Source: an uncultured Gammaproteobacteria bacterium (GTDB lineage: Bacteria; Patescibacteriota; Microgenomatia; JAMCZE01). From it: a stretch of 64,000 nucleotides of DNA. The notes under the pieces were generated by a model. The model was given only the letters and a program-made list of their open reading frames with translations, was not told where the DNA came from and did not search any database. Location: positions 409,984-473,983 of the forward strand of contig CAZXMM010000001.1 of assembly GCA_964641255.1 (NCBI GenBank). Direction: 5' to 3'. This document shows, in pieces, positions 19,902-38,189 of this stretch. The number at the start of each line of letters is the position of its first letter. Within the stretch, counting starts at the first letter, position 1. The position numbers were made by a program, and so were the translations under genes.

Positions 19902-22071
19902 CAAATTGTGGCCGATTATTGTCTTAACTTTGTTTGTGGGGTTTACCTATCGTCAGTTTTTTTGGAACCAGCTTCTACCCATCCCCGCAGACACGATTGT
20001 CGGACTCTACCATCCCTGGCGGGATTTTTATCTGGAACAGTATCCGAGCGGCATACCTTATAAAAATCACTTAGTTACCGACGCGGTGCGTCAACTTTAC
20101 CCCTGGCGGTTTTTGGCTATCTCTCAACTTAAGGAGGGAGTAGCTCCACTTTGGAATTCATTTAGTTTTTCCGGGATGCCACTGGCCGCCAATCTTCAGG
20201 CGGCAACCTATTATCCCCTCAACGGTTTATACTGGTTAACCGACTTTGCTACCGCGTGGAGTTTGCAAGTAGTGTTGCAAACTATCCTGGGGGGCGTCTT
20301 TATGATGCTTTTCTTGCGGCAGCTCAAATTACAGTCGGCGGCTATTGCTCTGGGTACTCTGGCGTGGGTGGGAAGTGGTTTTTTTGTTGCCTGGCTGACT
20401 TCCAATACGCTTGTCCAGGTAGCTATTTGGCTACCGCTTCTTTTTACAGGCATTGAGATTGTCACTAACCAGAAAAAAAACCTCTGGGGAGGAGCCATTA
20501 TCGCAGTGGCAATTTGTTGCAGTTTCCTAGCCGGAGCGCTCCAAATTTTTGGTTACTGCTTGGTGGCTGGTGTGGCTTACACTCTCTACCAGGATTTTAC
20601 TAGGCGCTCAATTAGGACGAGTTCAATTGTTCTCATTGGTAGTGCCTTGGGTCTTGGGTTAGCTTTTCCACAGTGGCGGGTGTTACTGCCCTTTTCTTTT
20701 GAGGTGGTTCGTAGTGTTAGTGATGCCGCCTGGATGGAACCGGGTTGGTTTTTGCCCTGGCAAAATCTAATTCAATTTATAGCTCCGGATTTTTTTGGTA
20801 ACCCGGCTACCCTAAATTACTTTGGGGTGTGGAACTACATGGAGTTTGTAGGCTATGTGGGGCTGGTCCCACTAGTGTTTTCTGTCAGCGCTGCTTTGTT
20901 TCAGTTTAGAAAAAATGTTTTCTGGGTGGGCCTCATAATCATCGCTGTTCTTTTGGCTACACCTAACCCCATTTCTGCTTTGCCGTTTGCCTGGAAATTT
21001 CCTTTTTTCAGTTTGGGACAACCCACTCGTCTCCTCGTTCTCATCGATTTTTCCTTAGCAATCCTCGCTGCGAAAGGATTACAGAGTATGCTCACAAAAG
21101 AGCTTAAGTTAAGTAAAATTATTGCTACCTCTGGGGTTATCGCGGGAATAATTGGTACTTTGTATGGTGTAGCGCTATTTTTTAATTTGGCTGTTAGCCG
21201 GCAAAACCTTATTCTTCCTACCGTACTTATTATTGTTGTTGTCCTACTATTATTTTTAGCAACGAAATCAAAATTTACTTTGGTTGCTGTTAGCTGCTTG
21301 GTAATAATCACGATTGCCGATTTGGGTCGATTTATGACTAAATTCACACCCTTCACTAGCCGCGACCAGCTTTATCCCCAAACACAGATAACAAAGTACT
21401 TATCAGACCAAGCCAAAAGTAACCCAATTCGGGTAGTAGCGCTCGATGATCGGATAATGCCCCCAAATTTCTCCATCATGTACGGCATTCCTATGGCTTC
21501 TGGTTATGATTCCTTTTTCTTAAAAGATTACGCGCTGCTGTTGGGTAAAATTGAAGGCACCAATAACTTTAACCGGATCATTACACCCAAAAACCTTGCC
21601 CACCCTCTATTTCCACTTTTAGGAGTGAACTATGTTTTGTCCTTTGATCCGTTACTACCAAGTGATGGGGCTAGTGGCACTTTTGCGCCTATCAGGTTGA
21701 CGTATACTATGAACGAGGGGCAAACCCATCTTTATCAAGTAATGAGCAGCTTACCGCGAGCTTTTTTTGTCTCAAACATTTTTCCAGAAAGAGACGAATT
21801 TATTCCTAGCGACCAAGCAATTGCGGAGGGGGTAGTGGAACAAGAGTTTTTGCCAGGAGGAATGGCGAAAATTGTTTCTTATTCTAACAACGAAGTAAAA
21901 ATAGAAGTGGTTAATGAAACCGATGGGTTTTTGGTTTTATTGGATACTTATTATCCTTCCTGGCAGGCAACGGTGGATGGAAAACCAACCAAAATCTATC
22001 GGACCGATTATGCTTTTAGAGGAGTTTTTGTGCCAGCAAATAGCCACCAGGTAATTTTTACAGTGAGGTAA
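19858..22071 (+). CDS. YfhO-family polytopic membrane glycosyltransferase (second copy)
   Basis: 737 aa. N-terminal loop IVGLYHPWRDFYLEQY...LYPWRF parallels the 7406 protein (LVAFYFPWSSGGF...MFPWRDF). C-terminus LLDTYYPSWQATVDGKPTKIYRTDYAFRGVFVPANSHQVIF. Confidence 0.75.
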   Translation: MARKSFMRHFISWLNKLWPIIVLTLFVGFTYRQFFWNQLLPIPADTIVGLYHPWRDFYLEQYPSGIPYKNHLVTDAVRQLYPWRFLAISQLKEGVAPLWNSFSFSGMPLAANLQAATYYPLNGLYWLTDFATAWSLQVVLQTILGGVFMMLFLRQLKLQSAAIALGTLAWVGSGFFVAWLTSNTLVQVAIWLPLLFTGIEIVTNQKKNLWGGAIIAVAICCSFLAGALQIFGYCLVAGVAYTLYQDFTRRSIRTSSIVLIGSALGLGLAFPQWRVLLPFSFEVVRSVSDAAWMEPGWFLPWQNLIQFIAPDFFGNPATLNYFGVWNYMEFVGYVGLVPLVFSVSAALFQFRKNVFWVGLIIIAVLLATPNPISALPFAWKFPFFSLGQPTRLLVLIDFSLAILAAKGLQSMLTKELKLSKIIATSGVIAGIIGTLYGVALFFNLAVSRQNLILPTVLIIVVVLLLFLATKSKFTLVAVSCLVIITIADLGRFMTKFTPFTSRDQLYPQTQITKYLSDQAKSNPIRVVALDDRIMPPNFSIMYGIPMASGYDSFFLKDYALLLGKIEGTNNFNRIITPKNLAHPLFPLLGVNYVLSFDPLLPSDGASGTFAPIRLTYTMNEGQTHLYQVMSSLPRAFFVSNIFPERDEFIPSDQAIAEGVVEQEFLPGGMAKIVSYSNNEVKIEVVNETDGFLVLLDTYYPSWQATVDGKPTKIYRTDYAFRGVFVPANSHQVIFTVR

Positions 22072-22072
22072 A

Positions 22073-23737
22073 ATGAGAATCAAACTACTACTTAAAAATC
22101 ACTACCTAATTCTACTTATCATTCTTCTGGGGTTTTTGTTGCGGTTTTATCAACTGGGAAGTACCCCCCCCTCAATGAATATTGACGAAGTCAGTATTGG
22201 CTACAATGCTTATTCAATTTTAAAAACAGGCCATGACGAATTTGGCAAATTTTTCCCCTTATCTTTTCGCTCTTATGATGATTACAAGCCACCGCTTTAT
22301 ATCTATTTGGTGGTGCCCGCGATTGCTATTTTGGGGCTGACTGATTTTGCGGTGCGTTTCCCCGCGGCACTGATGGGAACACTAGCAATTCTTACGACAT
22401 ACTTATTCGTTCGGGAACTATTTCCCCACAAAAAATCGATCGCTATGTTTTCGGCCCTACTTCTAGCCATTACCCCTTGGCATCTGCAGTTTACAAGAAC
22501 CGCGTTTGAAGTCGGAGGCATGGCCTTTTTGACCACTTTGGGACTTTTTCTCTACCTTAAAGGACTGCGAAGAAAACAATTGTTACTTATCGCTCTATCT
22601 GGTCTAATTCTTGCCTTGGAGGGATTTTTATATCAAGCGGCCAGACTGTTTACCCCACTACTGGGACTAGTTCTCTTGGCCATCTATCTCATCCCCCTGA
22701 TCTGGCAAAAGCAGTGGAAAAGACTACTTACTGTGGGATTTAGCTTTGGAATTGTTTTTTTACTTTTATTTGGTCCAATTATTTTCTTGACTCTTAGTCC
22801 AGAGGGACAAGCGCGTTTTCAAGGAACAAGTATTTTTCAGGATTTTGAGCCCCATGCTCAAGGAGTCGCTTTTCAGACCACAGACTGGCTAAGTGCGGAT
22901 CGGCTGGTGGTTTTAGCCTTTCATCAGGAGCCCCTATTCTATCTGCAAAAAATAGCCGTTGGGTACTTTACTCATCTTCGCCTGGATTTTCTTTATCTCG
23001 GTCTGGGAGGAGTCAAGGTTAATCTGATTCCTCATGTGGGTTTGGAGCTTCTTTGGACACTGCCGTTTTTACTCATTGGCCTTTTCTACCTTTTTGACTA
23101 TCACGACAAACGAGTAATTGGTCTTCTTTTGGGCTGGCTACTGATAAGTCCCATTCCTGCGGCATTGACTTGGGACATTCCTACTTCAATTCGTACTGCT
23201 GTTATGCTGCCGGTATTGGAGATTATTGTCTCTCTGGGCATAGTCATGATTGTTTCCAAGCTGCATAAAACACCTCGACTTCGTTTGCCCGCGCTGCTTT
23301 TTATCGCTGCAACCGGGGTTTATTTTTTTGCTTACATGCTTCATATGCTGTTTTTTCACCTGCCCGAGTATCTAAGTAAGCAGTGGTACGCGCCTTACCG
23401 AGAAGTGGTTGAGACAACCATGCGTTTGGCACCAAATTACGACAAAGTAATCGTTGGCACTAATCTTGATCAACCCCATGGTTTTTTTCTTTACTATAGT
23501 CACTATGACCCCAAGACCTACTTGGACAAGGATGGGGGAACGGTATCGGGTAGTTACACCACCACTGCCAATCATCTGGCTAACATCTATTTTGAACATC
23601 TTGGTTTTGATCAGATTAAAGAAAAAAACGTGCTAGTTGTTGGACACCGGGGGGATTTTCCAAGGGAGCTTAAACCACTCTTTGTGTTTCCCGTTGGAAC
23701 TGCTGAAAATGACATCGTAATTGTAGAGAAACAATGA
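22073..23737 (+). CDS. ArnT/PMT-like GT-C membrane glycosyltransferase, family B paralog 1
   Basis: 554 aa. Signature first loop RFYQLGSTPPSMNIDEVSIGYNAYSILKTGHDEFGKFFPLSFRSYDDYKPP (DE motif). Contains a C8 tract at 22164-22171. Confidence 0.7.
   Translation: MRIKLLLKNHYLILLIILLGFLLRFYQLGSTPPSMNIDEVSIGYNAYSILKTGHDEFGKFFPLSFRSYDDYKPPLYIYLVVPAIAILGLTDFAVRFPAALMGTLAILTTYLFVRELFPHKKSIAMFSALLLAITPWHLQFTRTAFEVGGMAFLTTLGLFLYLKGLRRKQLLLIALSGLILALEGFLYQAARLFTPLLGLVLLAIYLIPLIWQKQWKRLLTVGFSFGIVFLLLFGPIIFLTLSPEGQARFQGTSIFQDFEPHAQGVAFQTTDWLSADRLVVLAFHQEPLFYLQKIAVGYFTHLRLDFLYLGLGGVKVNLIPHVGLELLWTLPFLLIGLFYLFDYHDKRVIGLLLGWLLISPIPAALTWDIPTSIRTAVMLPVLEIIVSLGIVMIVSKLHKTPRLRLPALLFIAATGVYFFAYMLHMLFFHLPEYLSKQWYAPYREVVETTMRLAPNYDKVIVGTNLDQPHGFFLYYSHYDPKTYLDKDGGTVSGSYTTTANHLANIYFEHLGFDQIKEKNVLVVGHRGDFPRELKPLFVFPVGTAENDIVIVEKQ
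22164..22171. repeat. C8 homopolymeric tract inside the 5' end (codons about 31-33) of the family B GT-C gene
   Basis: Sequence gtaCCCCCCCCtcaatg, read directly. It encodes the TPPS segment. Confidence 0.9.
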
Positions 23738-25377
23738 AAAAGTTTTTGCTACTAGCATGGGCGATTTTTCTCTTAGGGGCAGTCCTAAGACTATATCGGT
23801 TGCCAACCATTCCAGCTGGCTTAAATCTTGATGAGGTGGCCATGGGTTACAATGCCTATTCCCTTCTTAAAACTGGCCACGACGAATATGGAGCCGTCTT
23901 GCCAATCTATTTTCGCTCGCATGATGATTATAAACCGCCCTTTATCATCTATACCCAGGTGCCATCGGTGGCTATTTTTGGGCTAAATGCTTTAGCCGTC
24001 AGGTTACCCTCCGCTTTAATGGGAATTTTGGGAATTGTTTTGACATACCATTTAGTTACTGAACTGTTTCCGAAGCGGAAAAAAACAGCGCTGCTAGCGA
24101 GCTTTTTGTTTGCCATTTCCCCTTGGGCCCTCCAGTTCAATCGCACGGCCTACGAGGTGGGCATGCAACCGACTCTGACGACAGGTGCTCTCTATTTTTT
24201 CCTTAGCGGTCTGAGACTTAAATCGTGGCTGAGAATGATACTAGCGGGAGTCTTTTTTGGACTGGGACCACATCTTTACACCGCTTCACGGGTCTTTGTT
24301 CCCACTCTTTTGGTGGCAAGCAGTCTCTTGTATCGCAAAGAGTTGTGGGGTAATCGGAAGTTGGCCATCGCTTTTGCTACCGCCTTGCTCATTTTTCTTC
24401 TGCCCGCTTTTTATTTATTAACCACTCCAGCTGGTCAAGTGCGTTTTAAAGGAACCAGTATCTTGCAAGATTATGGCCCCCATGCGCAGAATCTCGCTTG
24501 GCAAACAGCAGATTGGTTGAGGCGAGACCGCATCGGCGCAATGTTGTTTCACTCGGAAAAGATTGAGTTTTATCCTCAGATTCTAAGCGGCTATTTTGCC
24601 CATCTGCGCCTTGATTATCTCTTCTTGGGTAATTCCCACTCCAGCACCAATTATGTTCCCAATGCCGGGCTTATTTACGCGTGGGAATTACCCTTTATAG
24701 TGGCCGGATTTTTCTTTCTCTTTAAACAGAAAAACAAACGCATAGCTCTGTTGTTAACAGCCTGGATTATATTGGCGCCACTGCCAGCTTCTGTCACCTC
24801 GGGTATTCCCAGTTCCATTCGTACCACCATCTTTTTGCCCGCTTGGCAAATTATTTCCGCTTTTGGAATCCTAACACTTTACGCCAGGCTTATTACAGTT
24901 CGGAAAACGGTTAAATTAATTGTTTTGGGAGGATTTTGTGGGGTTGCTACCTACGCCCTTGGCTACTACTTGCACATGTATTACATTCATGCTCCCATAG
25001 CGCGGGGTAAGTTTTGGTACAGTTCTTATCCTGCTGTTGTTACGGTTACACAATCGCTTGCAAGCCAGTACCAAAAGGTCATAGTTTCTAATCGACTTGA
25101 TCAACCCCAAAGTTTTTTTCTGTTTTACACACACTATGATCCTAAGACGTACTTTGAAAAGGATGGTGGCACTGTTTCTGGAAGTTTTTCTGAGGATCGT
25201 AATCATTTCGGAAATTTTGAATTTAAGCCAATTCATTATTCCGAAATGTCTAAGGATACCGACTATTTGTACGTTGGTGTTGCTGACGACTTTCCCAAGA
25301 GTGCGCCATTAATCCAGAAATTCCTTAACCCAGATGGCAGCGACGGGGTCTATATAGTGGGAAATAAGAAAAATTGA
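23734..25377 (+). CDS. ArnT/PMT-like GT-C membrane glycosyltransferase, family B paralog 2
   Basis: ATGA overlap with the upstream gene. Loop RLYRLPTIPAGLNLDEVAMGYNAYSLLKTGHDEYGAVLPIYFRSHDDYKPP. Confidence 0.7.
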   Translation: MKKFLLLAWAIFLLGAVLRLYRLPTIPAGLNLDEVAMGYNAYSLLKTGHDEYGAVLPIYFRSHDDYKPPFIIYTQVPSVAIFGLNALAVRLPSALMGILGIVLTYHLVTELFPKRKKTALLASFLFAISPWALQFNRTAYEVGMQPTLTTGALYFFLSGLRLKSWLRMILAGVFFGLGPHLYTASRVFVPTLLVASSLLYRKELWGNRKLAIAFATALLIFLLPAFYLLTTPAGQVRFKGTSILQDYGPHAQNLAWQTADWLRRDRIGAMLFHSEKIEFYPQILSGYFAHLRLDYLFLGNSHSSTNYVPNAGLIYAWELPFIVAGFFFLFKQKNKRIALLLTAWIILAPLPASVTSGIPSSIRTTIFLPAWQIISAFGILTLYARLITVRKTVKLIVLGGFCGVATYALGYYLHMYYIHAPIARGKFWYSSYPAVVTVTQSLASQYQKVIVSNRLDQPQSFFLFYTHYDPKTYFEKDGGTVSGSFSEDRNHFGNFEFKPIHYSEMSKDTDYLYVGVADDFPKSAPLIQKFLNPDGSDGVYIVGNKKN

Positions 25378-27038
25378 TGAGAAGGATTTTACTGCTCTTA
25401 GCCGTTCTTTTGTTGGCGTTTTTTGTACGACTTTACCAAGTGCAAGTGATTCCGGTCTCGCTCTATTGGGATGAAGTGGCAATTGGGTACAATGCTTATG
25501 CCGTTTCGGAGACAGGCAAGGACGAGTATGGTTCCTCTTTTCCATTGCTGTTCAGGTCTTTTGATGACTATAAACTGCCAGGTCAAGTTTATCTCACGGC
25601 ACCCTTCGTTAAAATATTGGGTCTGAGTGAACTTGCTGTTCGCCTGCCAGCGGTACTCATGGGCACACTTGCTGTTTTAGCAACCTACGCTTTTACTCTA
25701 CAACTCTTTTCAAAACGAACCAAACTGGCACTGTTGAGCGGTTTTTTCTTAGCCATCTCGCCCTGGCACATACACTTTACTCGTGCCTCCTTTGAAGCGG
25801 GAAGTGCCCTGACACTGCTCATAGCGGGTGCTGCTTGTATCCTCAAGGGATTAAAAGCGAGACAACTTCCCGCCCTTATTATTGGCATCCTACTCCTAGC
25901 GGGGAGCACCTATTTTTACCGCTCTGCTCAAGTATTTGCCCCGCTCCTTGTTTTAGGTTTGTTACTTTTTTCGTGGAAGAAAACTATCCTTTCTATTAAA
26001 AAACCGCTACTGGTGGTAGTTATTTTTTCCGCTTTAGTAGCTTTAATTTACTTCGTTTCTTTTTTTGGTGTCGGCAATGTGCGCATTAATCAGGTCGGAG
26101 TAGCAAGTGAAACTTTTGATCAAACTGTTGAGAGTGCCAAACTTATTGAGCAAAGTGGTAGTACCGCACTTTCGCGAATTATCTACAACAGGCGTTTCAT
26201 TTATGCTCTCCAGTTTGCTAAAAACTATGCCGCCCATTTTAATCCGAATTTTCTGTTTTGGTCAGGAGATCCGTTTGGGCGACACCAAACGCCGGGTATG
26301 GGACAACTTTATTTTTGGGAAATTATCACACTGCCCCTTGGCCTTTTGGGCTTGTGGCTGTTTTCTAAAAAGAAGTTTGGGCTTCTTAGTTGGTGGGTTG
26401 TCTCGGCAATTGTTCCGGCAGCCCTTGCCTCACCCAGTCCTCATGCCCTGCGTAGTTTGAATATCCTTCCGATTCCACAAATACTTTCTGCCTGGGGCAT
26501 AATTTTTGTTAGTAGTTTGACAAAGAGTCACTGGGCTAAACTGAGTAGTAGTCTGGCCATAGCTGGAATTATTGCAGTCTTCCTCCATCGCTATTTGTCG
26601 CTTTACTTTATTTTGTCGCCGAGCTACAGTTCCTTTTCCTGGGGGGATCCTAATAAAGAGCTAGTTGCATACTTAACCCCACTGGAGAGTAAATATGACA
26701 AGGTCATTGTCACTGGCTTTAATTGGCAACCCTATATTTATTTTTTGTTTTATCAAAAAGTAAATCCCAAGGAGTTTCAAAACTCAGGAACCAGTTTTGA
26801 ATTTAAAAAGTATTGGTTTGGTTCGCCCGATTGGGACCCCCAAAATCCCTACCGTCAACTGCGTAATATTAATTTGGCCGACTTTAATAGATATGGCCAG
26901 AAGCTGCTTTTTGTGTTGTCTGAGGAAGAATATAAGCTTAAGAAAAGTGAGGTAGCAGTTTTGCGAGAAATGCGGGCTAAAAATAGCAGGTTAGTCTTTG
27001 TGCTAGCGCAGCCGATCACAACCTCAGATCTTCAGTGA
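25374..27038 (+). CDS. ArnT/PMT-like GT-C membrane glycosyltransferase, family B paralog 3
   Basis: ATGA overlap with the upstream gene. Loop RLYQVQVIPVSLYWDEVAIGYNAYAVSETGKDEYGSSFPLLFRSFDDYKLPG. Confidence 0.7.
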   Translation: MMRRILLLLAVLLLAFFVRLYQVQVIPVSLYWDEVAIGYNAYAVSETGKDEYGSSFPLLFRSFDDYKLPGQVYLTAPFVKILGLSELAVRLPAVLMGTLAVLATYAFTLQLFSKRTKLALLSGFFLAISPWHIHFTRASFEAGSALTLLIAGAACILKGLKARQLPALIIGILLLAGSTYFYRSAQVFAPLLVLGLLLFSWKKTILSIKKPLLVVVIFSALVALIYFVSFFGVGNVRINQVGVASETFDQTVESAKLIEQSGSTALSRIIYNRRFIYALQFAKNYAAHFNPNFLFWSGDPFGRHQTPGMGQLYFWEIITLPLGLLGLWLFSKKKFGLLSWWVVSAIVPAALASPSPHALRSLNILPIPQILSAWGIIFVSSLTKSHWAKLSSSLAIAGIIAVFLHRYLSLYFILSPSYSSFSWGDPNKELVAYLTPLESKYDKVIVTGFNWQPYIYFLFYQKVNPKEFQNSGTSFEFKKYWFGSPDWDPQNPYRQLRNINLADFNRYGQKLLFVLSEEEYKLKKSEVAVLREMRAKNSRLVFVLAQPITTSDLQ

Positions 27039-28701
27039 CCTGGGTTTTATCAATGAGAATCTTGGCTCCAATACTTCCGTTGGCCATGGGAATAGGGATT
27101 ACTGTTGCCCAATCGGGCTCGTCACAGTAGGAACTGTCCAGATAAATTTGATACTCGGTGTGTTCCACCATTTTGCTGGCACACGGACCAGCACCAGTGA
27201 AGCGGTAATTAAGAAAACTCATCTCATTATTTTTGGCATTTTTGTAAGCTTCTTGGGCGATTTTTGGATCAATCTTTTCAAAGAACAATGAATATATGTG
27301 AGTATCTAGGAAATAGGTAGTGGCGAGAACTTGATACTTTTTAGGTACTTTACTTAATTTTTGGGCAGCAATTCGGGATGGGTAATTGCGATTTAGCCAC
27401 TCATCTCCCCGTGCGTGGACACTATACTCGTGCCAGAAATATGCAAAGTGCCAAAGGGAGATTCCAAGCAGGAGAACAAAACAAATGCGCTTGAGATTTA
27501 GTTTTATTAAACCAGTAAGAGAACTAAGCCCCATAGCTCCTAAAATAACTAAAGGAACTATCATATTACTGGCCCTACTCATATTAGGATGACCGTCAGA
27601 GGTGATGGCGGCAACAAGAGGACCAACAAGTAGCCAGCCCCCCACAAGAATTAAAATTGGCCGAATTTTTGGTTGTCGCCAGCTGGCGGCGAGGCCCAGT
27701 AGCCAGATACCTATTCCAATTACGGTGACAAAGTTAACTACTCCTGACTTAGGGATTTGATAGCGACCGGCGCTGCCCCCTTCAAACAGCAGGAATTTTC
27801 CACTGAAGTAGTCAGTATAACGTTCAGTCACCGTCTGAAGAATGATTATTGGCTTATTATGAAACAGCCTGGTTACGTATGTAGAAGTTCCGTCTAATTC
27901 TTGGGAGATAAATTTGTCGATTTGCTGCTGGCTATAGAGATTCACTACTTGCCTGGCTCTACTAGTGGCAGGACCAAGAAAAACAATTGTAGCCACTGGA
28001 AAGATCAGATAGGCCGCTACCACGACGAGCCATAGTCTCAGTTTTTTCTTGTTCGAAGCCTTTAGGTAAAGGTAAAGCGTCAAGAAGGGTAAAAAAAGAA
28101 TAATGAACGGATTGGTTCCAGTATAAGTCCAAAAAGAAAGAAGCAGAGTCAGATAAGTAAAAAACCACCAAAATGGTTTCCGCTCGAGCGCAAAGATGGC
28201 CAGATTGGTAATAAGTAGTGTCATAAAGATTCCCACGACTTGCTCGGCGGTGGCTCGGGAAAGAATAATGTGCCAGGGAGAGATAGCGAGGAGGAGGCCA
28301 GACAAAACGGCCACAGATCGCTTTTTAAACAGTTGCCAAACCAAAAAATAAAGCAGGACTGGGCTAAACGCTCCAAAAATTGCTGCCGGTAATCTGACGG
28401 CCTCTTCATTTAGTCCCAGCAGTGCTACCACCGGCACAATTAAATAGACTATCCCCATAGGGCGATAGTCACCGAAAGTATCAACGTATAGAGCCAAGTA
28501 TTGGCTATAAACATTGCTACCGGTCTTTAAGACCGAGTAGGCGTTGTATCCGGCAACCGCCTCATCAAACTGAAAACCAGCGGGTAAGTGGCCTAGATCC
28601 CAAAGGCGGAAAAAAAGGGCAATGCTAAGGATGGCTAGGCAAGCGATTAAATGCTTTCTCATTTTGCTTCTAATCTCATCTAAAGAAAATCCCCAGCTCA
28701 A
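27016..28701 (-). CDS. ArnT/PMT-like GT-C membrane glycosyltransferase, family B paralog 4 (inverted orientation)
   Basis: Loop RLWDLGHLPAGFQFDEAVAGYNAYSVLKTGSNVYSQYLALYVDTFGDYRPMG. 3' end overlaps the convergent + gene by 23 bp. Start may be the internal ATG at 28662. Confidence 0.65.
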   Translation of the reverse strand: MSWGFSLDEIRSKMRKHLIACLAILSIALFFRLWDLGHLPAGFQFDEAVAGYNAYSVLKTGSNVYSQYLALYVDTFGDYRPMGIVYLIVPVVALLGLNEEAVRLPAAIFGAFSPVLLYFLVWQLFKKRSVAVLSGLLLAISPWHIILSRATAEQVVGIFMTLLITNLAIFALERKPFWWFFTYLTLLLSFWTYTGTNPFIILFLPFLTLYLYLKASNKKKLRLWLVVVAAYLIFPVATIVFLGPATSRARQVVNLYSQQQIDKFISQELDGTSTYVTRLFHNKPIIILQTVTERYTDYFSGKFLLFEGGSAGRYQIPKSGVVNFVTVIGIGIWLLGLAASWRQPKIRPILILVGGWLLVGPLVAAITSDGHPNMSRASNMIVPLVILGAMGLSSLTGLIKLNLKRICFVLLLGISLWHFAYFWHEYSVHARGDEWLNRNYPSRIAAQKLSKVPKKYQVLATTYFLDTHIYSLFFEKIDPKIAQEAYKNAKNNEMSFLNYRFTGAGPCASKMVEHTEYQIYLDSSYCDEPDWATVIPIPMANGSIGAKILIDKTQVTEDLRL

Positions 28702-30181
28702 TGTTTTTGTCGTGGGGAATTTTCATTTCTTCCACTGACAAATTGTATCTTAGGAGAGTATAGCCGTTAGGAAATGTTTTGGTAGAGACTGGTGGCTGTT
28801 TGATTCTTACCATGTTTTCAATCCACCACTGATAACCCATGTAGGGGTTATCAACTGGCGGTTGTTGGGCGATGACATAGGTGGTGGGTAGTTTGGTATA
28901 TTCACGACCAAAATTGCCTGCCGTTTCAAAGTTATAAATCATGGCATAACGCGGTTGATAGGCAAAAGCATCTGGTGAGTAGACAAAGTAGCCAAATTCC
29001 TTCCCCTCTTGTCCGGTGAGCACGCTTTTAGCAACTTGCGACAGCCCAAGCCAAGAGTTTGGATCTTTAAAGAAGAAATCCTTTTGCAGCCTTTGTAAAT
29101 AAACTGTGCTGCCTTGTAAATTAAGAGCTACCAAAATTATTGTTAAGCCAATGACAAGTTTTTTTAATCGCCCTTGAGCCAGTGAAACAAACCACAGGGT
29201 CGTTAAGGGCATCATGGGAAAATAGTAGTGATAGAGAAGTGTCCCTTTATTGAAAAATGTTGACCCCATAAATCCAAAATAGCAGAGTGCAAAAAGAAGA
29301 TGAGGTATGCGGCTTTTGACTAGAGTTTTGATTTGAAAAAGCGCACCTAATAGCGTGGTGATAAACAGCCCGAATACTAACTGCGACGGTAACCACCACC
29401 CCAGTTGCAAATTCATTATTTGATTAACTCGCTGACTGACGAAATTTGCGGGAGGCTGGGCTTTTGGGGAGAGGGCATAGTCAAAGAGTGCTTTGGCCAT
29501 TTGGTGATCGTGGCGGAAATCAAAAATTACAAAGTTGACCAACAGCAGGGGGACAATAATAAAAGTGAACCAGTGACGAAAAAGTCTCCTTCGAATTATT
29601 ACGATAGCAGTTACAACAAACGTGATCCCAAAAAGAGGTAGCATTGCCAACATGAACTGAACCATGAGGGCGCAAACAATAATATTAAGAAGCAGGAATT
29701 TCCATTGGGCACTTTGACAGTAACGAAGGAGAGTATAGTAATAAGCCCCACTAAGAAAAACGGTAGCGTGGCCATGAAAGAAGGCGTCATTATTGCGAAA
29801 GATCATGTTGCCTGACAGCAAAATGGCGTAAAGACAAGCGGGGACTAGTCCAAAAAGTTTTTTGGCAATAAAAAATCCCAAAGCAACCATCAAAATTGTT
29901 AATAAAATCCAAAACCAACCCTGGACTACTGGATTACCTTGACCCAGTAAAAAGGTGGGGTAGTTAAGATAGGACCACAGCGGTCCGTGATATAACCCGG
30001 CTATGTTGGAGCGCGGTCCAATAAAGACTAGTGTTTTTTCACTGATCTCCCGGTAAAGAAGAAAATCGCGGGCCACATCATTAAATAAATTAACTTCGCC
30101 GTGCAAGAGAGAGAAACTTGCAAGACCTATATGTAGCGTCGTTAGTATGATGGTTACTCCCAATAATACCTTTTTCCACAT
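28676..30181 (-). CDS. Polytopic GT-C-like membrane glycosyltransferase, family A paralog (inverted orientation)
   Basis: 501 aa. Loop EVNLFNDVARDFLLYREISEKTLVFIGPRSNIAGLYHGPLWSYLNY parallels the 2307 protein. Confidence 0.5.
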   Translation of the reverse strand: MWKKVLLGVTIILTTLHIGLASFSLLHGEVNLFNDVARDFLLYREISEKTLVFIGPRSNIAGLYHGPLWSYLNYPTFLLGQGNPVVQGWFWILLTILMVALGFFIAKKLFGLVPACLYAILLSGNMIFRNNDAFFHGHATVFLSGAYYYTLLRYCQSAQWKFLLLNIIVCALMVQFMLAMLPLFGITFVVTAIVIIRRRLFRHWFTFIIVPLLLVNFVIFDFRHDHQMAKALFDYALSPKAQPPANFVSQRVNQIMNLQLGWWLPSQLVFGLFITTLLGALFQIKTLVKSRIPHLLFALCYFGFMGSTFFNKGTLLYHYYFPMMPLTTLWFVSLAQGRLKKLVIGLTIILVALNLQGSTVYLQRLQKDFFFKDPNSWLGLSQVAKSVLTGQEGKEFGYFVYSPDAFAYQPRYAMIYNFETAGNFGREYTKLPTTYVIAQQPPVDNPYMGYQWWIENMVRIKQPPVSTKTFPNGYTLLRYNLSVEEMKIPHDKNIELGIFFR

Positions 30182-30184
30182 ATA

Positions 30185-31807
30185 ATGTATGGTAGCATGA
30201 AGCTAGTAAAAATACCTTTGGTCCTCATTATTTTTTTAGCCATTCTCCTTCGGCTTTTTCAGCTAAACTCTGTCCCGTTGGGTCTATCTTGGGACGAAGC
30301 CTCCCTTGGCTATAACGCCTATGCAATTGCCACTACGCTTCATGATGAGCACGGGGAATTTTTGCCCGTGGCCAGATTTATGGCCTTTGGTGACTATAAA
30401 CCGCCAGGGTACATTTATGTTTCCGCCGTAGCGGTAAAACTTTTGGGATTGTCGGAGTTTTCCACTAGACTGCCTTCGGCTCTAGCAGGAACGCTTCTGG
30501 TTGTAGTGGCCTACTTTTTAGTCAAAGAACTGCTCAGGCGCGAGTCAGTAGCGCTATTAACCGCGTTTGTAGTCGCGATTTCGCCCTGGGCACTACAGTT
30601 TTCTCATGCCGCTTTCGAGGCAAATTTAGCTACCGCTTTCTCGGCCACTGGCATTTTGTTTTTCTTGGTTGCCCTGCGAAAAAAACCGTGGGTCTTTTTT
30701 TCCTTGGCCAGTGTCTTTCTAGTTGCCTCGACCTATACTTTTAACAGTCATCGCATTTTTGTCCCCCTTATTTTGGTGGCTCTTACGCTTATTTACTTTA
30801 AAGCCGCACTTAAAAATTGGAAAGTTTTTATTGTTTTATACGGACTATTCTTTATTCTGTTCCTGCCCCAAGTACCCTTCCTTCTTTCCCAAGAGGGCAA
30901 GCTCCGCTTTAACGAAGTTGCCTGGATTAATGATCTTGAGCCTCTTGAAGAGGCCAATCTCCGAGTTGCGATAGATGACAATAGTGTCCTGGGGAAAATT
31001 GTCCACAACCGCCGTGTAGTCTATGGACTACAGTTCTTGGAACATTACACTGATACCTTTCGCTCTCAGTTCCTCTTTATCTCGGGCGACGTTAACCCAC
31101 GGTTGTCGATTCAATCTGTGGGAGAAATGTATTTATTAGAACTACCGCTGTTACTTTTGGGGATTTTCTTCTTAGCTAAAAAACACTCTAAATCTGGGCT
31201 CGTTCTTTTAGCGTGGACACTTTTGGCCCCATTACCAGGAGCGTTAGCCAGGGAAACCCCCCACGCCCTACGAACTCTGACCCTGCTACCTGTGCCGCAA
31301 ATATGTGTGGCGGCGGGGGTGTTTTTTTTAGCAGATTTATTAAGGAAATATGGGGCGAGCAAAAAAGTGGCCACCCTAATTATCCTTGGCGGTTATACTA
31401 TCTCGTTTGCTGTTTACTTACACGACTTTTATATAGCTTATCCCCAAATATCAGCTCTAGAGTGGCAATATGGGTATAAACAAATGGTAAAAAAAGTCAG
31501 TAGCCTAGCCAGTAACTACGATTCGATTTCAGTGACTGAGACCTATGGTCGACCCTACATTTACTTTTTGTTTCACGAGAATCATGCACCAAAGGATTAT
31601 TTAATTAGTCGGAATGTTGATCGGGACTGGTACGGATTTTGGTATGTGCGTTCTTTTGGTCCTTATGTTTTTGGCGCCCAAGCTCCTAAAGGGTCTAGGG
31701 TTTTATACGTCAGGGGACCAAACGAACCGGCCGAAAATACTCGGGAAATTGGTACTATTAATAACACCGACGGGGAAGTGATATTTGTTTTATCAGAAAG
31801 TAAATGA
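30185..31807 (+). CDS. ArnT/PMT-like GT-C membrane glycosyltransferase, family B paralog 5
   Basis: Loop RLFQLNSVPLGLSWDEASLGYNAYAIATTLHDEHGEFLPVARFMAFGDYKPPGY. Start is 3 bp from the divergent minus-strand start; an alternative ATG lies at 30197. Confidence 0.7.
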   Translation: MYGSMKLVKIPLVLIIFLAILLRLFQLNSVPLGLSWDEASLGYNAYAIATTLHDEHGEFLPVARFMAFGDYKPPGYIYVSAVAVKLLGLSEFSTRLPSALAGTLLVVVAYFLVKELLRRESVALLTAFVVAISPWALQFSHAAFEANLATAFSATGILFFLVALRKKPWVFFSLASVFLVASTYTFNSHRIFVPLILVALTLIYFKAALKNWKVFIVLYGLFFILFLPQVPFLLSQEGKLRFNEVAWINDLEPLEEANLRVAIDDNSVLGKIVHNRRVVYGLQFLEHYTDTFRSQFLFISGDVNPRLSIQSVGEMYLLELPLLLLGIFFLAKKHSKSGLVLLAWTLLAPLPGALARETPHALRTLTLLPVPQICVAAGVFFLADLLRKYGASKKVATLIILGGYTISFAVYLHDFYIAYPQISALEWQYGYKQMVKKVSSLASNYDSISVTETYGRPYIYFLFHENHAPKDYLISRNVDRDWYGFWYVRSFGPYVFGAQAPKGSRVLYVRGPNEPAENTREIGTINNTDGEVIFVLSESK

Positions 31808-33315
31808 GATTAAAACTTAAACTCTTTTTTTTAAGTCACTGGATTTTTCTAATCCTACTTACTTTGTATTTTGTTACTCGTCTTTACAAGTTGACGATTT
31901 TACCGCTGTTTACGGATGAATCGATCTACCTGTATTGGGCTAAAGTGATCGTTAGTACCAATAGTCAGTTTTTTATCTCTCTGACTGATGGCAAGCCGCC
32001 GATTCTCATTTGGCTCATGGCTTTGTTTCTTAAGGTGTTACCTGCTGACTGGTATCTCGTGGCTGGTAGACTACCATCAGTTCTAGCAGGAAGTGTCGGC
32101 CTGGCCTGTTTTTACGGTTTGGCACTGCAACTTTTTAACAGTAAAAAGGTCGCTGTTATGGCGGCAATTTTGTTGTTGATTTCTCCATTTCAGCTGCTTT
32201 ATGACCGGATGGCGCTTTTTGACGGATTGTTATCAGCAATGCTTCTGGCCACCTGTTTCCTGGCCGTTAAAACGGCAAAAAATCTATCTCTTAAATACAC
32301 CCTCTTATGGGGACTAGCCATTGGTTTGGCACTGCTGTCCAAGCCAACCGCCCTTATTGTCGCGGTCATAACACCGCTCCTGGGACTATTCGGTTTGGAG
32401 CAGGTTCTTGGGGGCAAGAAATTAGAAAAGTTTATATTACTTTCCCTGGTGGCCCTCGCACTTGGCGTAGGGCTTGAATACCTACAGCATTTTTCGTCAG
32501 TGTACTACCTCATGGTGGGCAAGAATGCCCAGTTTCAGCAACCACTCGAGGAGCTTATTCGTTCTCCCCTGGCACTTACTAGCGGGAATTTACAAGGATT
32601 TTTTCAGTGGCTTATCCCCTATTACACTAGTCCTGTTTTCGTTTTGGGTCTACTCAGCTTCGTAATTCTATTTTTCAAAAGATTCCGGCTTGGGCTAATT
32701 CTTCTCTCCTTGTGGCTGCTACCCATTGTGGCCCTAGCTACGGTGGGGCGGATCATTTTCCCCCGCTACATTCTTTTTACCACGCCCTATTTTCTTTTGC
32801 CCATCGCCTACGCGGTAGTCTGTTTGTTGGAACAAAGAAAACCGGTAGTAAAAATTGCCCTAGGAATTATCGTGGTTCTAACTTTCTTGCCCCAACTGAG
32901 TGTTGCTAAATTAATTCTAACTGACCCACCCAAGGCCCCTTTGCCAGACACTGACTATCAACAGTATATTTCTGAGCACCCCTCCGGTTATGGTCTAGAC
33001 CGGATATTTAGTTTCATTGATAAGGAAGCCCAAACAAAGCCGGTAACAGTAGTAACGCAGGGAACATTCGGTTTATATCCCTACGCTTTTACTTTGCACT
33101 ATTGGGGTAGTCCTAACGTGACAATCATGTCCCGTTGGCCACTGTCAGTTATTGATGAAGACATTTATGTCGCCAGCCGAAAAGGCCCGACCTTTATTAT
33201 TCTTAAGGAACATGACACTATTCCGAGTAATTTACCTCTAACACTCGTTTTAAAAAGCGAGAAACCAGGGGGGAAATATCCAATTCTAGTTACTATCCTT
33301 AGCGATCCAAAATGA
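31804..33315 (+). CDS. PMT_2/ArnT-like GT-C membrane glycosyltransferase (divergent subtype)
   Basis: 503 aa and polytopic. Loop RLYKLTILPLFTDESIYLYWAKVIVS (DE motif after TM1), the typical ArnT/PMT arrangement. Confidence 0.6.
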   Translation: MRLKLKLFFLSHWIFLILLTLYFVTRLYKLTILPLFTDESIYLYWAKVIVSTNSQFFISLTDGKPPILIWLMALFLKVLPADWYLVAGRLPSVLAGSVGLACFYGLALQLFNSKKVAVMAAILLLISPFQLLYDRMALFDGLLSAMLLATCFLAVKTAKNLSLKYTLLWGLAIGLALLSKPTALIVAVITPLLGLFGLEQVLGGKKLEKFILLSLVALALGVGLEYLQHFSSVYYLMVGKNAQFQQPLEELIRSPLALTSGNLQGFFQWLIPYYTSPVFVLGLLSFVILFFKRFRLGLILLSLWLLPIVALATVGRIIFPRYILFTTPYFLLPIAYAVVCLLEQRKPVVKIALGIIVVLTFLPQLSVAKLILTDPPKAPLPDTDYQQYISEHPSGYGLDRIFSFIDKEAQTKPVTVVTQGTFGLYPYAFTLHYWGSPNVTIMSRWPLSVIDEDIYVASRKGPTFIILKEHDTIPSNLPLTLVLKSEKPGGKYPILVTILSDPK

Positions 33316-34973
33316 AAAAACATTCAATTGTTTTGCTAACTTTGGTTGTGGTCTTGGGGTTGGTACTGCGCTTTTGGCATTTGGGCCAAGTGCCTCCTAG
33401 CTTGGATTGGGATGAAGCCTCACTCGGCTGGAATGCTTATTCGCTTTTAAAAACGGGGACTGATGAGTACGGGGTGAGCACTCCGTTGACCATTCGCTCC
33501 TTTAATGACTACAAGCCACCGGTTTATGTGTATGGCTTGACTTTGGTGCTCTTTTTTTTGGGACTTTCGGATTTTTCCATCCGTTTTTTATCGGCCCTCG
33601 CCGGGTCACTATCGGTGCTAGGTGTCTATTTTCTCGTTAGGGAATTAGTTCAAATTGGTAGGCGTGACAATTCTGTCACTAGCCTTCCCCTCCTATCTGC
33701 TTTGCTTCTAGCAATTTCCCCGTGGTCGGTCGGTTTTAGTCGCGTTGCCTTTGAGGCCAATCTGGCGCAATTATTTATTATTAGTGGTGCACTGTGGCTG
33801 TTAGTATTTTTGAGAAAACAAGCCTCTTGGCAGCTTTTTTTAGCACTTGGGAGCTACCTTGTTGCTTTTTACTGCTACCACAGCAGCCGCTTATTTGTCC
33901 CTTTGTTTTTGGTAAGTAGTGCACTTTGTTTACCACTTTTAAGTAAAGTTAGAAAACTACTACTCGTTGGGCTGGTGATTTTTGCCCTTTTTTTATTACC
34001 CGCTTTTAAAAGTGTGGTTACGGGGGATGGTACGGCCGCTCGGTTTGGGTCCGTCAGCATCTTTGCCCCGGAAGCCTACAAAGAACAAAAAGCTGTGCAA
34101 GAAAAAAGTTATCAGGAAGCTAAATCCCAGTCTGATCTGATCGGTAGCCTTAAAAATCACCGCTTTACTTTTTTTCCTCGGCAGTTTCTGGCCAATTATT
34201 TGTCCTATTTTGATTTTCGCTTCCTATTTTTACAAGCCGATGATAATAACCGTCATCACGCCCCCGATGTGGGATTACTGCCGCTTTGGGAGTCCCCGTT
34301 TTTAATTCTGGGTTTATTTTTTCTGTTTAGCAAAAGACCAGCCTGGAAAAGATTTCTTCTCATTTGGTTTCTTGCTGCCCCCGTTGCTGGGGCACTCGCC
34401 AGCCCCTCACCCCATGCGATTAGGTCTTTTGTTTTTTTGCCGACTTGGCAAATTATTACCGCTTTTGGGCTGCTATCAATTATCCAGATTTTATTTGGTT
34501 GGAAACGTAAACTTCTTGTTATGGCAATAGCCTGCTTAGCAATTGTTAACATTTATTATTTTGCTCATCAATATTTTATTCATGAACCTAAAGAGTATGC
34601 GGCCGATTTTCAATACGGCTATAAGCAAACTGTTCAAGTCGTAAAACCCCTTGAGCCCAACTACAAGGAAATATTTGTCACCAATTATTATGACCAGCCC
34701 TATATTTATTTTCTCCTCTATGGTGGGAGCGATCCGACTGTTAAAAATGACGGCACACTGGGAGAAAAGTATGGCAAAATTCGCTTTCTTAACTTTAGAA
34801 ATTTAAATAGTGAGGAAAAAAGACAGCTTCCCAAAGACGCTCTTTTTGTTGTCGCTCCTGGGGACGAAATTGCTCTATCGGTTGTAAAGGTTATCGTTAG
34901 GAGCCAGGACGGTAGACCACTCTTTATTGTGGGCGAGCAAGTTACCGATCTTGGATGGGGTAGTAGTCTTTAG
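33312..34973 (+). CDS. ArnT/PMT-like GT-C membrane glycosyltransferase, family B paralog 6
   Basis: Loop RFWHLGQVPPSLDWDEASLGWNAYSLLKTGTDEYGVSTPLTIRSFNDYKPPVY. Confidence 0.7.
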   Translation: MKKHSIVLLTLVVVLGLVLRFWHLGQVPPSLDWDEASLGWNAYSLLKTGTDEYGVSTPLTIRSFNDYKPPVYVYGLTLVLFFLGLSDFSIRFLSALAGSLSVLGVYFLVRELVQIGRRDNSVTSLPLLSALLLAISPWSVGFSRVAFEANLAQLFIISGALWLLVFLRKQASWQLFLALGSYLVAFYCYHSSRLFVPLFLVSSALCLPLLSKVRKLLLVGLVIFALFLLPAFKSVVTGDGTAARFGSVSIFAPEAYKEQKAVQEKSYQEAKSQSDLIGSLKNHRFTFFPRQFLANYLSYFDFRFLFLQADDNNRHHAPDVGLLPLWESPFLILGLFFLFSKRPAWKRFLLIWFLAAPVAGALASPSPHAIRSFVFLPTWQIITAFGLLSIIQILFGWKRKLLVMAIACLAIVNIYYFAHQYFIHEPKEYAADFQYGYKQTVQVVKPLEPNYKEIFVTNYYDQPYIYFLLYGGSDPTVKNDGTLGEKYGKIRFLNFRNLNSEEKRQLPKDALFVVAPGDEIALSVVKVIVRSQDGRPLFIVGEQVTDLGWGSSL

Positions 34974-34974
34974 T

Positions 34975-36693: not shown

Positions 36694-37406
36694 AGAAGCT
36701 ATCAATTATTATTCCAGTCTATAACGAAGAAGCTACGCTCAAAGCGGTTTTGGAGCGGGTGGTAAGCGTGAAGTATTTAGTCCCGTTTGAAGTAATTATC
36801 GTTAATGACGGGTCTCGAGATAGAAGCGGAGTGATTGCGGAAAAATTCGTCCAAGGTAACAAAAGCGCCCGCTATATTTCCCACGAGAAGAATCAGGGGA
36901 AAGGCGCAGCGGTGAGGACCGGTGCCAAGGCAGCTAGTGGTGATTATCTAATTATCCAAGATGCGGACCTAGAATATGACCCCCAGGATATTGTTCGTTT
37001 GATAAGAGAGCTAGGAAATCATCCAAAAGACGCGGTAATCTATGGGTCCAGACTGATGCAGCCGCCAGTCTTATTTGGACCAGATAAAACCCCATTGCTA
37101 CTCCATTATTTTGGTAACCGCTTCTTAAGTCTAGTGACTAGTCTGCTCTATGGCGAGTGGATCACTGATATGGAGACGTGTTTTAAACTCATTCCTGCCA
37201 GCTTTATGCAAACAGTAAAGCTTAATGCTCGTGGTTTTGAACTAGAACCAGAGCTAACGGCCAAGCTTCTTAAGGGGGGATACGACATTTTCGAGATCTC
37301 TATCCAAACCAAACCTCGCGGGTTTGATGAGGGCAAGAAACTCCGGACTTTTTATGATGGCCGTAAGGCTCTATGGGCGCTCATTAAGTACCGGTTCACA
37401 AATTAG
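36690..37406 (+). CDS. GT2 polyprenyl-phosphate sugar synthase (Dpm1/GtrB-like)
   Basis: Motifs LSIIIPVYNEEATL, IVNDGSRDRSG and IQDADLEYDP. Confidence 0.8.
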   Translation: MKKLSIIIPVYNEEATLKAVLERVVSVKYLVPFEVIIVNDGSRDRSGVIAEKFVQGNKSARYISHEKNQGKGAAVRTGAKAASGDYLIIQDADLEYDPQDIVRLIRELGNHPKDAVIYGSRLMQPPVLFGPDKTPLLLHYFGNRFLSLVTSLLYGEWITDMETCFKLIPASFMQTVKLNARGFELEPELTAKLLKGGYDIFEISIQTKPRGFDEGKKLRTFYDGRKALWALIKYRFTN

Positions 37407-38189
37407 ATGGCTACTTTATCAGTCACCCTAGCCACATTTAACGAAGAAAAATTTTTGGCGCGGTGTTTAAAAGCGGTAAAAAATATTGCCGACGAAATTG
37501 TTGTTGTTGACGGGCACTCTACCGATAAGACAGTCGCGATTGCCAAGAGGTTTGGGGCCAAAGTAATAAGCAAGCCCAACGATCCCATAAATTTTCACAT
37601 TAACAAGCGGGCAGCTAATGACGCTGCTCAATCTGAGTGGATTTTGCAGCTCGATGCCGATGAAGTAGTCAGCCCCGCTTTAGCTAAAGAGATTAAAGAT
37701 AAGATTAGTAGTAATCCTTCTGAAAATGGCTACTGGCTACCCAGAGCCAACTTTTTTTTGGGACGCTTTCTCAGGAAAGGGGGGGCCTATCCTGACTACA
37801 CCATGCGTTTGTACCGGAAAAGTCAAGGTAATTTGCCAGCTTTAAATGTTCATGAACAGGCGGTCGTTAATGGGGCAGTTGGTTTTTTAAAAAATGATCT
37901 TCTTCACTACAGTAACCCAACTTTCGCTGACTATATTGAAAAGCGCTTCAATCGCTATACCGATGTGATGGCTAGAGATTTGCCAGGGGGGTTTGTCCGT
38001 AATGTGATTTGGCGGCCGTTATTTGATCCCCATCAGGGATTTCTTTCAATTTATTTTCGCCATTTGGGGTTTTTAGATGGATTTCCTGGCTATACTTGGG
38101 CTCTTTTTTCTGCTTTGCATTTTCCTATCGCTTATTTCAAAAAATTGGATCTAGAAAGGCTAGGGAAAGATGAAAGTAGCACTCATTAG
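37407..38189 (+). CDS. GT2 family glycosyltransferase (same subtype as 18012)
   Basis: Motifs IVVVDGHSTDKT and LQLDADEVVS. Contains T8 and G7 homopolymer runs (37754-37761, 37779-37785). Confidence 0.7.
   Translation: MATLSVTLATFNEEKFLARCLKAVKNIADEIVVVDGHSTDKTVAIAKRFGAKVISKPNDPINFHINKRAANDAAQSEWILQLDADEVVSPALAKEIKDKISSNPSENGYWLPRANFFLGRFLRKGGAYPDYTMRLYRKSQGNLPALNVHEQAVVNGAVGFLKNDLLHYSNPTFADYIEKRFNRYTDVMARDLPGGFVRNVIWRPLFDPHQGFLSIYFRHLGFLDGFPGYTWALFSALHFPIAYFKKLDLERLGKDESSTH

Follow-up and report, generated by a model that had tools for sequence, protein, structure and literature searches.

A clade-wide array of probably non-redundant GT-C-type transferase paralogs with a shared first-loop signature in Microgenomates bacteria

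In Gram-positive bacteria, lipoteichoic acid (LTA), wall teichoic acid (WTA), and wall polysaccharides are decorated by multi-component systems, in which a GT-A/GT2 enzyme makes a C55-P-sugar, GtrA or Wzx flips it, and a GT-C enzyme of the PMT_2 or YfhO type transfers the sugar to the wall polymer outside the membrane (Rismondo, Gillis and Grundling, PMC8035078). In the PMT_2-type enzymes of these systems, one extracellular loop contains an acidic motif, and ArnT, STT3, AglB, and PglB are the structural top matches (PMC8035078); a similar three-component pathway is described in a further source (PMC11127046). In this study, we analyzed a 64-kb stretch of DNA (64,000 nucleotides of contig CAZXMM010000001.1, assembly GCA_964641255.1; hereafter, the window), which carries at 22073-34973 an array of genes for transferase-like membrane proteins related to such enzymes. 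Sets of several GT-C enzymes are also known elsewhere, namely, mycobacterial Emb/Aft/PimE and PpgS/Rv3779, eukaryotic ALG3/9/12/6/8/10, and Rhizobium RgtA-D. As described below, six of the genes in the array almost certainly encode GT-C transferases, and the array that they form is conserved across Microgenomates.

A sequence-only reading of the window had described the array as seven ArnT/PMT-like genes. All seven were located in the ORF listing of the window at the coordinates given below, and the array was found to be larger than seven genes, with a probable GT-C gene (X) lying inside it and YfhO and PTPS_related genes flanking it. We named the copies A1, A2, C, R, X, D, E, and F, and numbered the related loci (e.g., L002, L082, and L083). 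The genes are as follows:

22073-23737, plus strand: copy A1, 554 aa, DE-loop PMT_2 subfamily, signature D38-P73, PMT_2 35.0 bits
23734-25377, plus strand: copy A2, 547 aa, signature D33-P68 (nt 23830-23937), PMT_2 52.6 bits; the copy that was modelled
25374-27038, plus strand: copy C, 554 aa (553 aa from the ATG at 25377), PMT_2 34.9 bits
27016-28701, minus strand: copy R, 561 aa from a TTG (548 aa in the NCBI version, which would begin with the ATG at 28662), inverted and most divergent, PMT_2 40.9 bits
28676-30181, minus strand: X, 501-aa polytopic membrane protein within the array, Pfam orphan
30185-31807, plus strand: copy D, 540 aa, PMT_2 41.3 bits and PMT (PF02366) 41.7 bits
31804-33315, plus strand: copy E, 503 aa, distantly related PMT_2 paralog whose first loop is shortened (TDE...DGKPP), PMT_2 55.9 bits
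33312-34973, plus strand: copy F, 553 aa, PMT_2 35.1 bits

The gathering score of Pfam PMT_2 (PF13231; 26.1 bits) was passed by all seven PMT-like ORFs (35-56 bits). The threshold of PF02366 (PMT; 22.7 bits) was exceeded by copy D only, the other five DE-loop copies being without a match at E<=0.01. The six DE-loop copies (A1, A2, C, R, D, and F) align end to end with a pairwise blastp identity of 27-45% over 463-573 residues and E-values of 1e-36 to 1e-161 (45% for A1 against A2), indicating a homology well past the resemblance expected of hydrophobic low-complexity segments. Copy E is related to the family over its N-terminal ~200 residues only (hhalign probability of 96%, residues 12-194), and its first loop retains the DE and D.KPP elements, with the middle of the loop absent, in agreement with its earlier description as a related gene with a different loop.

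The six copies share, straight after the first transmembrane segment (TM1), the extended signature DE..GYNAY..TG.DEYG..P..FRS.DDYKPP. This signature, on which the sequence-only reading was centred, is real as a consensus, but its strict form is matched exactly by A2 alone; A1, C, D, and F deviate from it at one to ~10 positions, and copy R, as had been noticed, is the loosest, its second DE being replaced by NVY and its FRS by VDT. The D33-E34 pair (A2 numbering) lies directly C-terminal to TM1 in the six copies and in copy E, and each of the two residues is at least 90% conserved across 125 homologs, as are 20 of the 48 columns of external loop 1 (EL1). Copy R keeps D46 E47, D65, and the DY(R)P element and carries D50N, R61D, and K67R; it retains 49 of the 79 family-conserved columns, a loss of 30 that is exaggerated by the A-type-centred alignment on which the columns were defined. 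Its sequence suggests that copy R may have a changed or lost activity.

An AlphaFold2 model of A2, built from the alignment of 125 sequences, had a mean predicted local distance difference test (pLDDT) score of 95.5 and a predicted template modelling (pTM) score of 0.93, with ~11-12 long helices before residue 424, of which TM1 is helix 2-20; a hydropathy scan gave 8-12 segments. The Lys/Arg-rich segments of A2 (residues 2-3, 111-117, 333-336, and 386-392) fall in alternate loops, which are predicted to be cytoplasmic. This positive-inside pattern and the fold match point to an N-in topology, in which EL1, EL4 (~231-312, ~80 residues), and the C-terminal domain (~425-547) would face outward. 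The DE motif, following TM1 and a positively charged N-terminus, is placed in the outward first loop by this prediction, as had been proposed, and the arrangement is the same as in the solved GT-C enzymes, whose first loop faces outward. A motif lying elsewhere than in such a loop, which the sequence-only reading had named as a refutation, is contradicted by this placement. The model was indeed structurally similar to solved GT-C enzymes, with ArnT (5f15/5ezm) at the top of a Foldseek search against PDB, followed by AglB, STT3, PglB, PMTs, and ALG enzymes. In a search of PDB with the family profile, ArnT was the sole significant match, although a marginal one (E 0.001, 164 positions), in which the KPP motif was aligned with KPP of ArnT; a profile of the six sequences gave no match. 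Orthology to ArnT was rejected, because no NCBIfam ArnT model was matched (TIGR03663 alone appeared, far below its cutoff), the PDB profile match was marginal, and the structural alignment had an identity of ~14%. The ArnT/PMT-like GT-C character that had been proposed is borne out by the PMT_2 scores and the predicted fold, which place the proteins in the PMT_2/GT-C superfamily, and by analogy, they would work like ArnT, PMT, and PMT_2 GT-C enzymes. As judged from their sequences, the six DE-loop genes appear to constitute a Microgenomates-specific subfamily at the border between PMT and PMT_2 (GT39/GT83-like).

The remaining regions of the proteins had been described as strongly diverged. 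This holds for EL4 and the C-terminal domain, for which the mean pairwise identity among the six copies was 24% and 26%, respectively, but less so for the rest, as the copies align end to end and the identity was 49% in EL1, 35% in TM2-8, and 30% in TM9-12. When orthologs in the window, L082, and L083 were compared with paralogs, the mean identities were as follows:

EL4: 57% within orthogroups, 23% between paralogs
C-terminal domain: 50% within orthogroups, 24% between paralogs
EL1: 75% within orthogroups, 53% between paralogs
TM regions: 47-52% within orthogroups, 31-44% between paralogs

For EL4 and the C-terminal domain, hence, conservation within orthogroups exceeds that between paralogs ~2-2.5-fold. 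Being constrained in each ortholog line and different between lines, they bear the signature expected of specificity determinants, and this pattern in the sequences fits a paralog-specific acceptor or linkage specificity. The proposal of a conserved catalytic loop combined with variable outward regions is, in this respect, sustained, with EL4 added to the C-terminal domain. We consider it probable that the paralogs are non-redundant.

The conservation of the array was examined in 80 related loci, which were retrieved by an A-type motif, so that the frequency of A copies, unlike that of D copies, is partly by construction. Family ORFs, counted in each locus by a hidden Markov model made from the six window copies, numbered 1-7 per locus, with 2-7 copies in 75 of the 80 loci and a mode of 4 in loci of at least 20 kb. 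Directly adjacent family pairs on the same strand were present in 72 of the 80 loci, and 9 of 270 copies were on the opposite strand. In a neighbor-joining tree of 272 ORFs, the window copies fell in separate clades, which span many Microgenomates lineages:

clade D (window copy 30185): 69 sequences, in 68 other loci of the 80, essentially single copy
clade A (window copies 22073 and 23734, which are sisters): 102 sequences, in 76 other loci
clade R (window copy 27016, minus strand): 69 sequences, in 39 other loci, 0-4 copies per locus
clade C (window copy 25374): 8 sequences, in 7 other loci
clade F (window copy 33312): 10 sequences, in 8 other loci

The commonest array types were DA, RDA, and DAA, and the window is of the type AACrDF. 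In its two closest relatives, L082 (59% identity) and L083 (56%), the order is PMT_2(-)/PTPS_related/Wzx/GT2/GT4/YfhO/A1/A2/C/X(-)/D/E/F/GT2/PTPS_related, and A1, A2, C, X, D, E, and F each have a 1:1 ortholog in both (42-60% identity), with copy R missing at the array position. The identity to these orthologs was 57-60% for A1 and 46-54% for C; copy D was 51-59% identical to its orthologs, and the identity for F was 42-48% in L082, L083, and L002; orthologs of E sit after copy D in L002-L011, L082, and L083. The same order and the 1:1 orthologs, with R absent, indicate that the array is old, each member having been kept as its own lineage, and that copy number varies among relatives mainly via accessory copies. 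The nucleotide identity between copies, which had been called moderate, with two strings as an example that we located at 22196 and 23841, is confined in blastn to short patches of 66-84%, and recent amplification or gene conversion was rejected on this ground; the earlier view of an old array is, therefore, supported by blastn, the clades of the tree, and the orthologs alike. A further candidate, an invertible or mobile segment at 27016-30181, was also rejected, the boundary inverted repeats being absent beyond chance-level matches of 14-22 nt.

Beyond these loci, a motif scan of one genome per species gave at least 598 stretches, and the named records among the matches listed were mostly of Chisholm-, Gottesman-, Levy-, Curtiss-, Woese-, and Roizmanbacteria. 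A database search found more than 545 close relatives, the named ones of which are "glycosyltransferase family 39 protein" or "ArnT-like" and come from the Microgenomates group of the Candidate Phyla Radiation (CPR), and many homologs carry precomputed PF02366 matches. An exhaustive profile search gave 37,051 representatives with a cutoff of E<=1e-3; with E<=1e-30, the DE-loop subfamily alone accounts for at least 6,816 representatives of 50%-identity clusters. The genes are, thus, already annotated generically in public records and very common in metagenomes; in the searchable literature on CPR/Microgenomates GT-C, PMT_2, and GT39 arrays, no description of this subfamily, its first-loop signature, or the clade-wide core/accessory array was found. 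Judged from these sequences, the array is a clade-wide feature of Microgenomates, consisting of a widely conserved D copy beside A copies and of variable accessory copies. The "combinatorial toolbox" of the sequence-only reading, by contrast, is an overstatement; the data agree with non-redundant steps that form a fixed set, in which accessory copies are gained and lost to a modest extent. It was also observed that many records of metagenome-assembled genomes titled "uncultured Gammaproteobacteria" or "Pseudomonadales" (L002, L003, L009, L012-L014, and others) bear Microgenomates-type arrays syntenic with the window, and these titles are probably placeholders or wrong taxonomy. One homolog (P0082) is labelled as a Pacearchaeota archaeon.

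With respect to gene arrangement, ATGA start/stop overlaps are present at the junctions A1/A2, D/E, and E/F, indicating co-translation, and also at PTPS_related/GT2. The divergent starts of X and D are 3 bp apart (CAT ATA ATG), leaving no intergenic room for a promoter, and the convergent genes C and R overlap at their 3' ends by 23 nt (27016-27038). Promoter and terminator scans of 18000-37500 were at or below shuffle expectation and, hence, uninformative, and no tRNA genes were present in the 64-kb window.

The orphan membrane protein X had no match in Pfam or NCBIfam. It belongs to a conserved family of 207 homologs of ~500 aa, mostly "hypothetical protein" of Levy- or Gottesmanbacteria, in which D35, R38, and D39 are invariant just after TM1, and its orthologs occupy the same position in L082 and L083. 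The profile of the X family was aligned with that of the DE-loop family with a probability of 77% (E 2e-5) in register with TM2-6, whereas hhalign of the single X sequence against the family failed (probability of 3%). By these sequence profiles, X is probably a very divergent GT-C protein. A homolog of X, P0234 (752 aa), bears GT2-family Pfam domains, suggesting a fusion to GT2.

The whole 64-kb window is a glycan locus. It contains 15 genes of Pfam families that we take to belong to the GT-C clan, in addition to X: the six DE-loop copies, the PMT_2 genes E (31804), 2307, and 13244(-), the YfhO genes 7406 and 19858, the PTPS_related genes 9780, 14813, and 34927, and the DUF2142 gene 59220. 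Ten consecutive GT-C-type or probable GT-C genes lie at 19858-36693. The neighbours of the array, including candidates for the donor side, are as follows:

19858-22071, plus strand: YfhO-family membrane protein (PF09586, E 6e-34), directly upstream of the array
34927-36693, plus strand: PTPS_related membrane protein (PF10131, E 8.5e-9), the next gene downstream of the array, with paralogs at 9780 and 14813
36690-37406, plus strand: small GT2 similar to dolichol-P-mannose synthase (DPMS) (PF00535, E 1e-35), candidate polyprenyl-phosphate sugar synthase
16560-19901, plus strand: conserved upstream block of a Wzx-type flippase (16560-18008), GT2 (18012-18824), and GT4 (18828-19901)
365-3797, plus strand: three-component-type cassette of GT2 (365-1114), GT2 (1084-1851), GtrA (1835-2299), and PMT_2 GT-C (2307-3797)

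The best PDB match of the GT2 at 36690-37406 was the DPMS 5mlz (residues 3-234, E 1.4e-15), and in L002, L003, and L009, a GT2 of this type immediately precedes the first family (A) copy. The Wzx/GT2/GT4 order is repeated in L002, L009, L082, and L083, and a second Wzx-type protein is at 60689-61906. In the cassette, GT2 365-1114 was matched over its full length by 5mlz (E 6e-25), and GtrA (PF04138, E 2e-14) overlaps the second GT2; the layout is that of mycobacterial PpgS/Rv3632 plus a GT-C. At least four or five candidate DPMS/PpgS-like GT2s for donor synthesis are encoded in the window, where GT2s lie at 365-1114, 1084-1851, 3745-4584, 36690-37406, and 41763-42455. The two compared with solved structures (365-1114 and 36690-37406) were matched best by 5mlz across their whole catalytic domain, and 41763-42455 is PpgS-like at 3e-40, below the curated cutoff. 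Within 10 kb of arrays (82 loci), YfhO was present in 60, a 37407-type GT2 in 54, PTPS_related in 46, and a 36690-type GT2 in 34.

Other GT-C genes of the window also form diverged paralog sets: two YfhO genes (7406-9790 and 19858-22071, E 2e-77), three PTPS_related genes (9780-11354, 14813-16585, and 34927-36693, E 1e-36 to 1e-43), and two mutually paralogous genes of a second PMT_2 type (2307-3797 and 13244-14812(-), E 2e-24). An ABC-transporter Wzm/Wzt module and a pyruvyl transferase are also present. Large ORFs without a Pfam match (5666-7366(-), 11307-13247(-), 39131-40303, 40303-41760, 4581-5705, and 56858-58033) could be additional, unrecognised glycan-assembly proteins; a comparison of all of them except 56858-58033 with the remaining membrane proteins encoded in the window revealed no similarity. 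A segment with a lower GC content at 45727-56848 (0.36-0.40 vs 0.43-0.45 elsewhere) is an ABC-transporter-type glycan module with Wzm, Wzt (with Wzt_C), a GT47 exostosin-like protein, and several GT2s, and may have been acquired horizontally. It also encodes a protein with a GT6 domain (51738-53450, E 8e-43) and one resembling GT11 fucosyltransferases (54070-54957, E 6e-35); GT11 and GT6 in combination are the enzyme types for H and A/B blood-group-like epitopes, an unusual finding in a CPR genome.

Taken together, the explanation that we favor, by a modest preponderance, is that the six DE-loop genes and E, and probably X, encode non-redundant extracytoplasmic GT-C transferases, which depend on polyprenyl-phosphate sugars and act on an envelope glycopolymer. 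We infer the donor class, the catalytic roles of residues, the acceptor class, and the division of labour as follows. Cytoplasmic small GT2s of the DPMS/PpgS type would put a monosaccharide on polyprenyl phosphate, and GtrA- and/or Wzx-type proteins would flip the lipid-linked sugar to the outer leaflet. Each GT-C paralog would then hold the lipid-phosphate-sugar in its membrane cavity, where, by analogy, the phosphate may be held by the KPP lysine and conserved arginines and the acceptor hydroxyl may be activated by the Asp-Glu of the first loop. The sugar would finally be passed to an envelope glycopolymer, namely, a secondary wall polysaccharide or a teichoic-acid-like polymer of this monoderm-type cell. 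Because the paralogs differ mainly in the outward EL4 and the small C-terminal alpha/beta domain, each could serve a different acceptor site or linkage, as a decoration or in a stepwise extension, and a polymer is preferred as the acceptor owing to the context of Wzx, GT4, YfhO, and the ABC transporter.

Several points weigh against this explanation. No acceptor gene or motif was identified, and given several distinct GT2 candidates in the window, a donor common to all paralogs, as supposed in the sequence-only reading, is not required. Copy R, with its 30 lost residues including D50, R61, and K67, may be non-catalytic. The residue-level roles would be those of ArnT and PMT by analogy, the retrieval by the A-type motif partly inflates the frequency of A copies, and the neighbor-joining tree is without support values. 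Moreover, protein O-mannosyltransferases would be as good a fit as polymer-modifying enzymes to the DE motif and to the PF02366 match of copy D.

The last point leads to the best surviving alternative, which we regard as appreciably less likely: the paralogs could glycosylate proteins in O-linkage (O-mannosyl type), as do Pmt/PMT and the streptococcal Pgf GT-C enzymes, and each paralog or heteromer, as in yeast Pmt1-Pmt2, would have its own set of targets among proteins that are secreted or exposed at the surface, e.g., S-layer proteins, pilins, and Ser/Thr-rich disordered regions. Asp-Glu in loop 1 is a hallmark of PMT and is present here, copy D and many homologs have matches to PF02366 in addition to those to PMT_2, and the NCBI name of family members refers to family 39. 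The position of D directly beside A in the commonest array types would suit a heteromer. GT-C-dependent O-glycosylation of disordered regions in bacteria is documented (PMC11092751). It is, however, ArnT and STT3, and not PMT, that gave the best structural and only significant sequence matches, the neighbours (Wzx, GT4, YfhO, ABC Wzm/Wzt, and pyruvyl transferase) are of the polysaccharide type, and no gene that could encode an acceptor glycoprotein was apparent in the window.

It is an unlikely alternative that one or more copies, chiefly R and perhaps X, are non-catalytic GT-C-fold proteins that serve as scaffolds, acceptor-recognition subunits, or lipid-carrier handlers. The substitutions of copy R in the signature loop, as well as the weak alignment of X to the family and its lack of a Pfam match, are in line with this, and the review by Rismondo et al. 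(PMC8035078) speculates that small GT-C enzymes may recognize their acceptor with the help of a partner. Copy R, on the other hand, retains the first DE, D65, and the DY(R)P element and belongs to a large conserved clade (69 sequences in 39 loci), its losses are overstated by the A-type-centred alignment, and the invariant D..RD of X after TM1 would agree with a GT-C acidic motif in modified form. The last alternative, that the copies are largely redundant isoforms, recently amplified or in fast turnover, for dosage or antigenic/phase variation, has very little probability left, because the variable copy number, the absence of R from L082 and L083, and the comparatively young duplication of A1/A2, all of which would suit it, are outweighed by the 27-45% identity of the paralogs with no long nucleotide matches, the retention of each ortholog lineage over large distances (the A1/A2 pair itself being common to L082 and L083), an inverted block (27016-30181) without flanking inverted repeats, and EL4 and C-terminal regions that are ortholog-conserved yet paralog-divergent, as expected of fixed distinct roles, so that blastp, blastn, the tree, and the L082/L083 orthologs have already largely refuted it.

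As a conjecture that we hold with low confidence, D and the neighbouring A-type copy, possibly with E, may form a heteromeric GT-C core like Pmt1-Pmt2 within an extracytoplasmic assembly line of up to ten genes, by which a surface polymer specific to Microgenomates would be assembled step by step from polyprenyl-phosphate monosaccharides. If so, the gain and loss of the accessory copies R, C, and F would give lineage-specific glycans relevant to attachment or host recognition. CPR/Microgenomates genomes are ~1 Mb in size (the source contig is 950 kb), yet 15 GT-C-family genes and X are present in 64 kb, a very large investment in outward-facing glycosylation in bacteria that are believed to live in dependence on contact with other cells. 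The D orthogroup and accessory clades, the paralog-specific EL4 and C-terminal regions, and the linked DPMS-like GT2 provide a concrete starting point for learning what these cells display on their surface and for the choice of genes for heterologous expression. The general understanding of GT-C enzymes is unchanged; the array is real, typical of the clade, and broader than first thought, and is mechanistically an expected use of GT-C.

Compared with the closest known systems, the family has only ~14% identity to ArnT (undecaprenyl-phosphate-L-Ara4N:lipid A transferase, GT83; PDB 5ezm/5f15), and the extended DE..GYNAY..DEYG..FRS loop is absent from ArnT in the alignment. ArnT is normally single-copy, unlike the array here, and to our knowledge, CPR bacteria are generally reported to be without lipopolysaccharide and lipid A, so that the acceptor here would have to differ from that of ArnT. 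The difference from PMT/Pmt (GT39) is that PF02366 is reached by only one of the six copies and that EL4, the long outward loop of ~80 residues, has no insertion comparable to the MIR domain of eukaryotic PMTs. The mycobacterial, ALG, and RgtA-D sets consist of different GT-C families with a low sequence relation to the array. The Gram-positive multi-component systems (CsbB/GtlA plus GtcA plus YfhO/GtlB/GacL) are represented in the window by the same classes, i.e., DPMS/GtrB-like GT2s, GtrA and Wzx flippases, and PMT_2 and YfhO GT-Cs, and their PMT_2 GT-Cs share with the present family the same structural top matches and an acidic outer-loop motif. In the known systems, however, there is one GT-C per GT2, whereas a run of up to ten GT-C-type genes is present here (19858-36693), interspersed with few GT2s, and unlike in the Gram-positive systems, the subfamily, its loop signature, and the conserved order of the paralogs are specific to Microgenomates.

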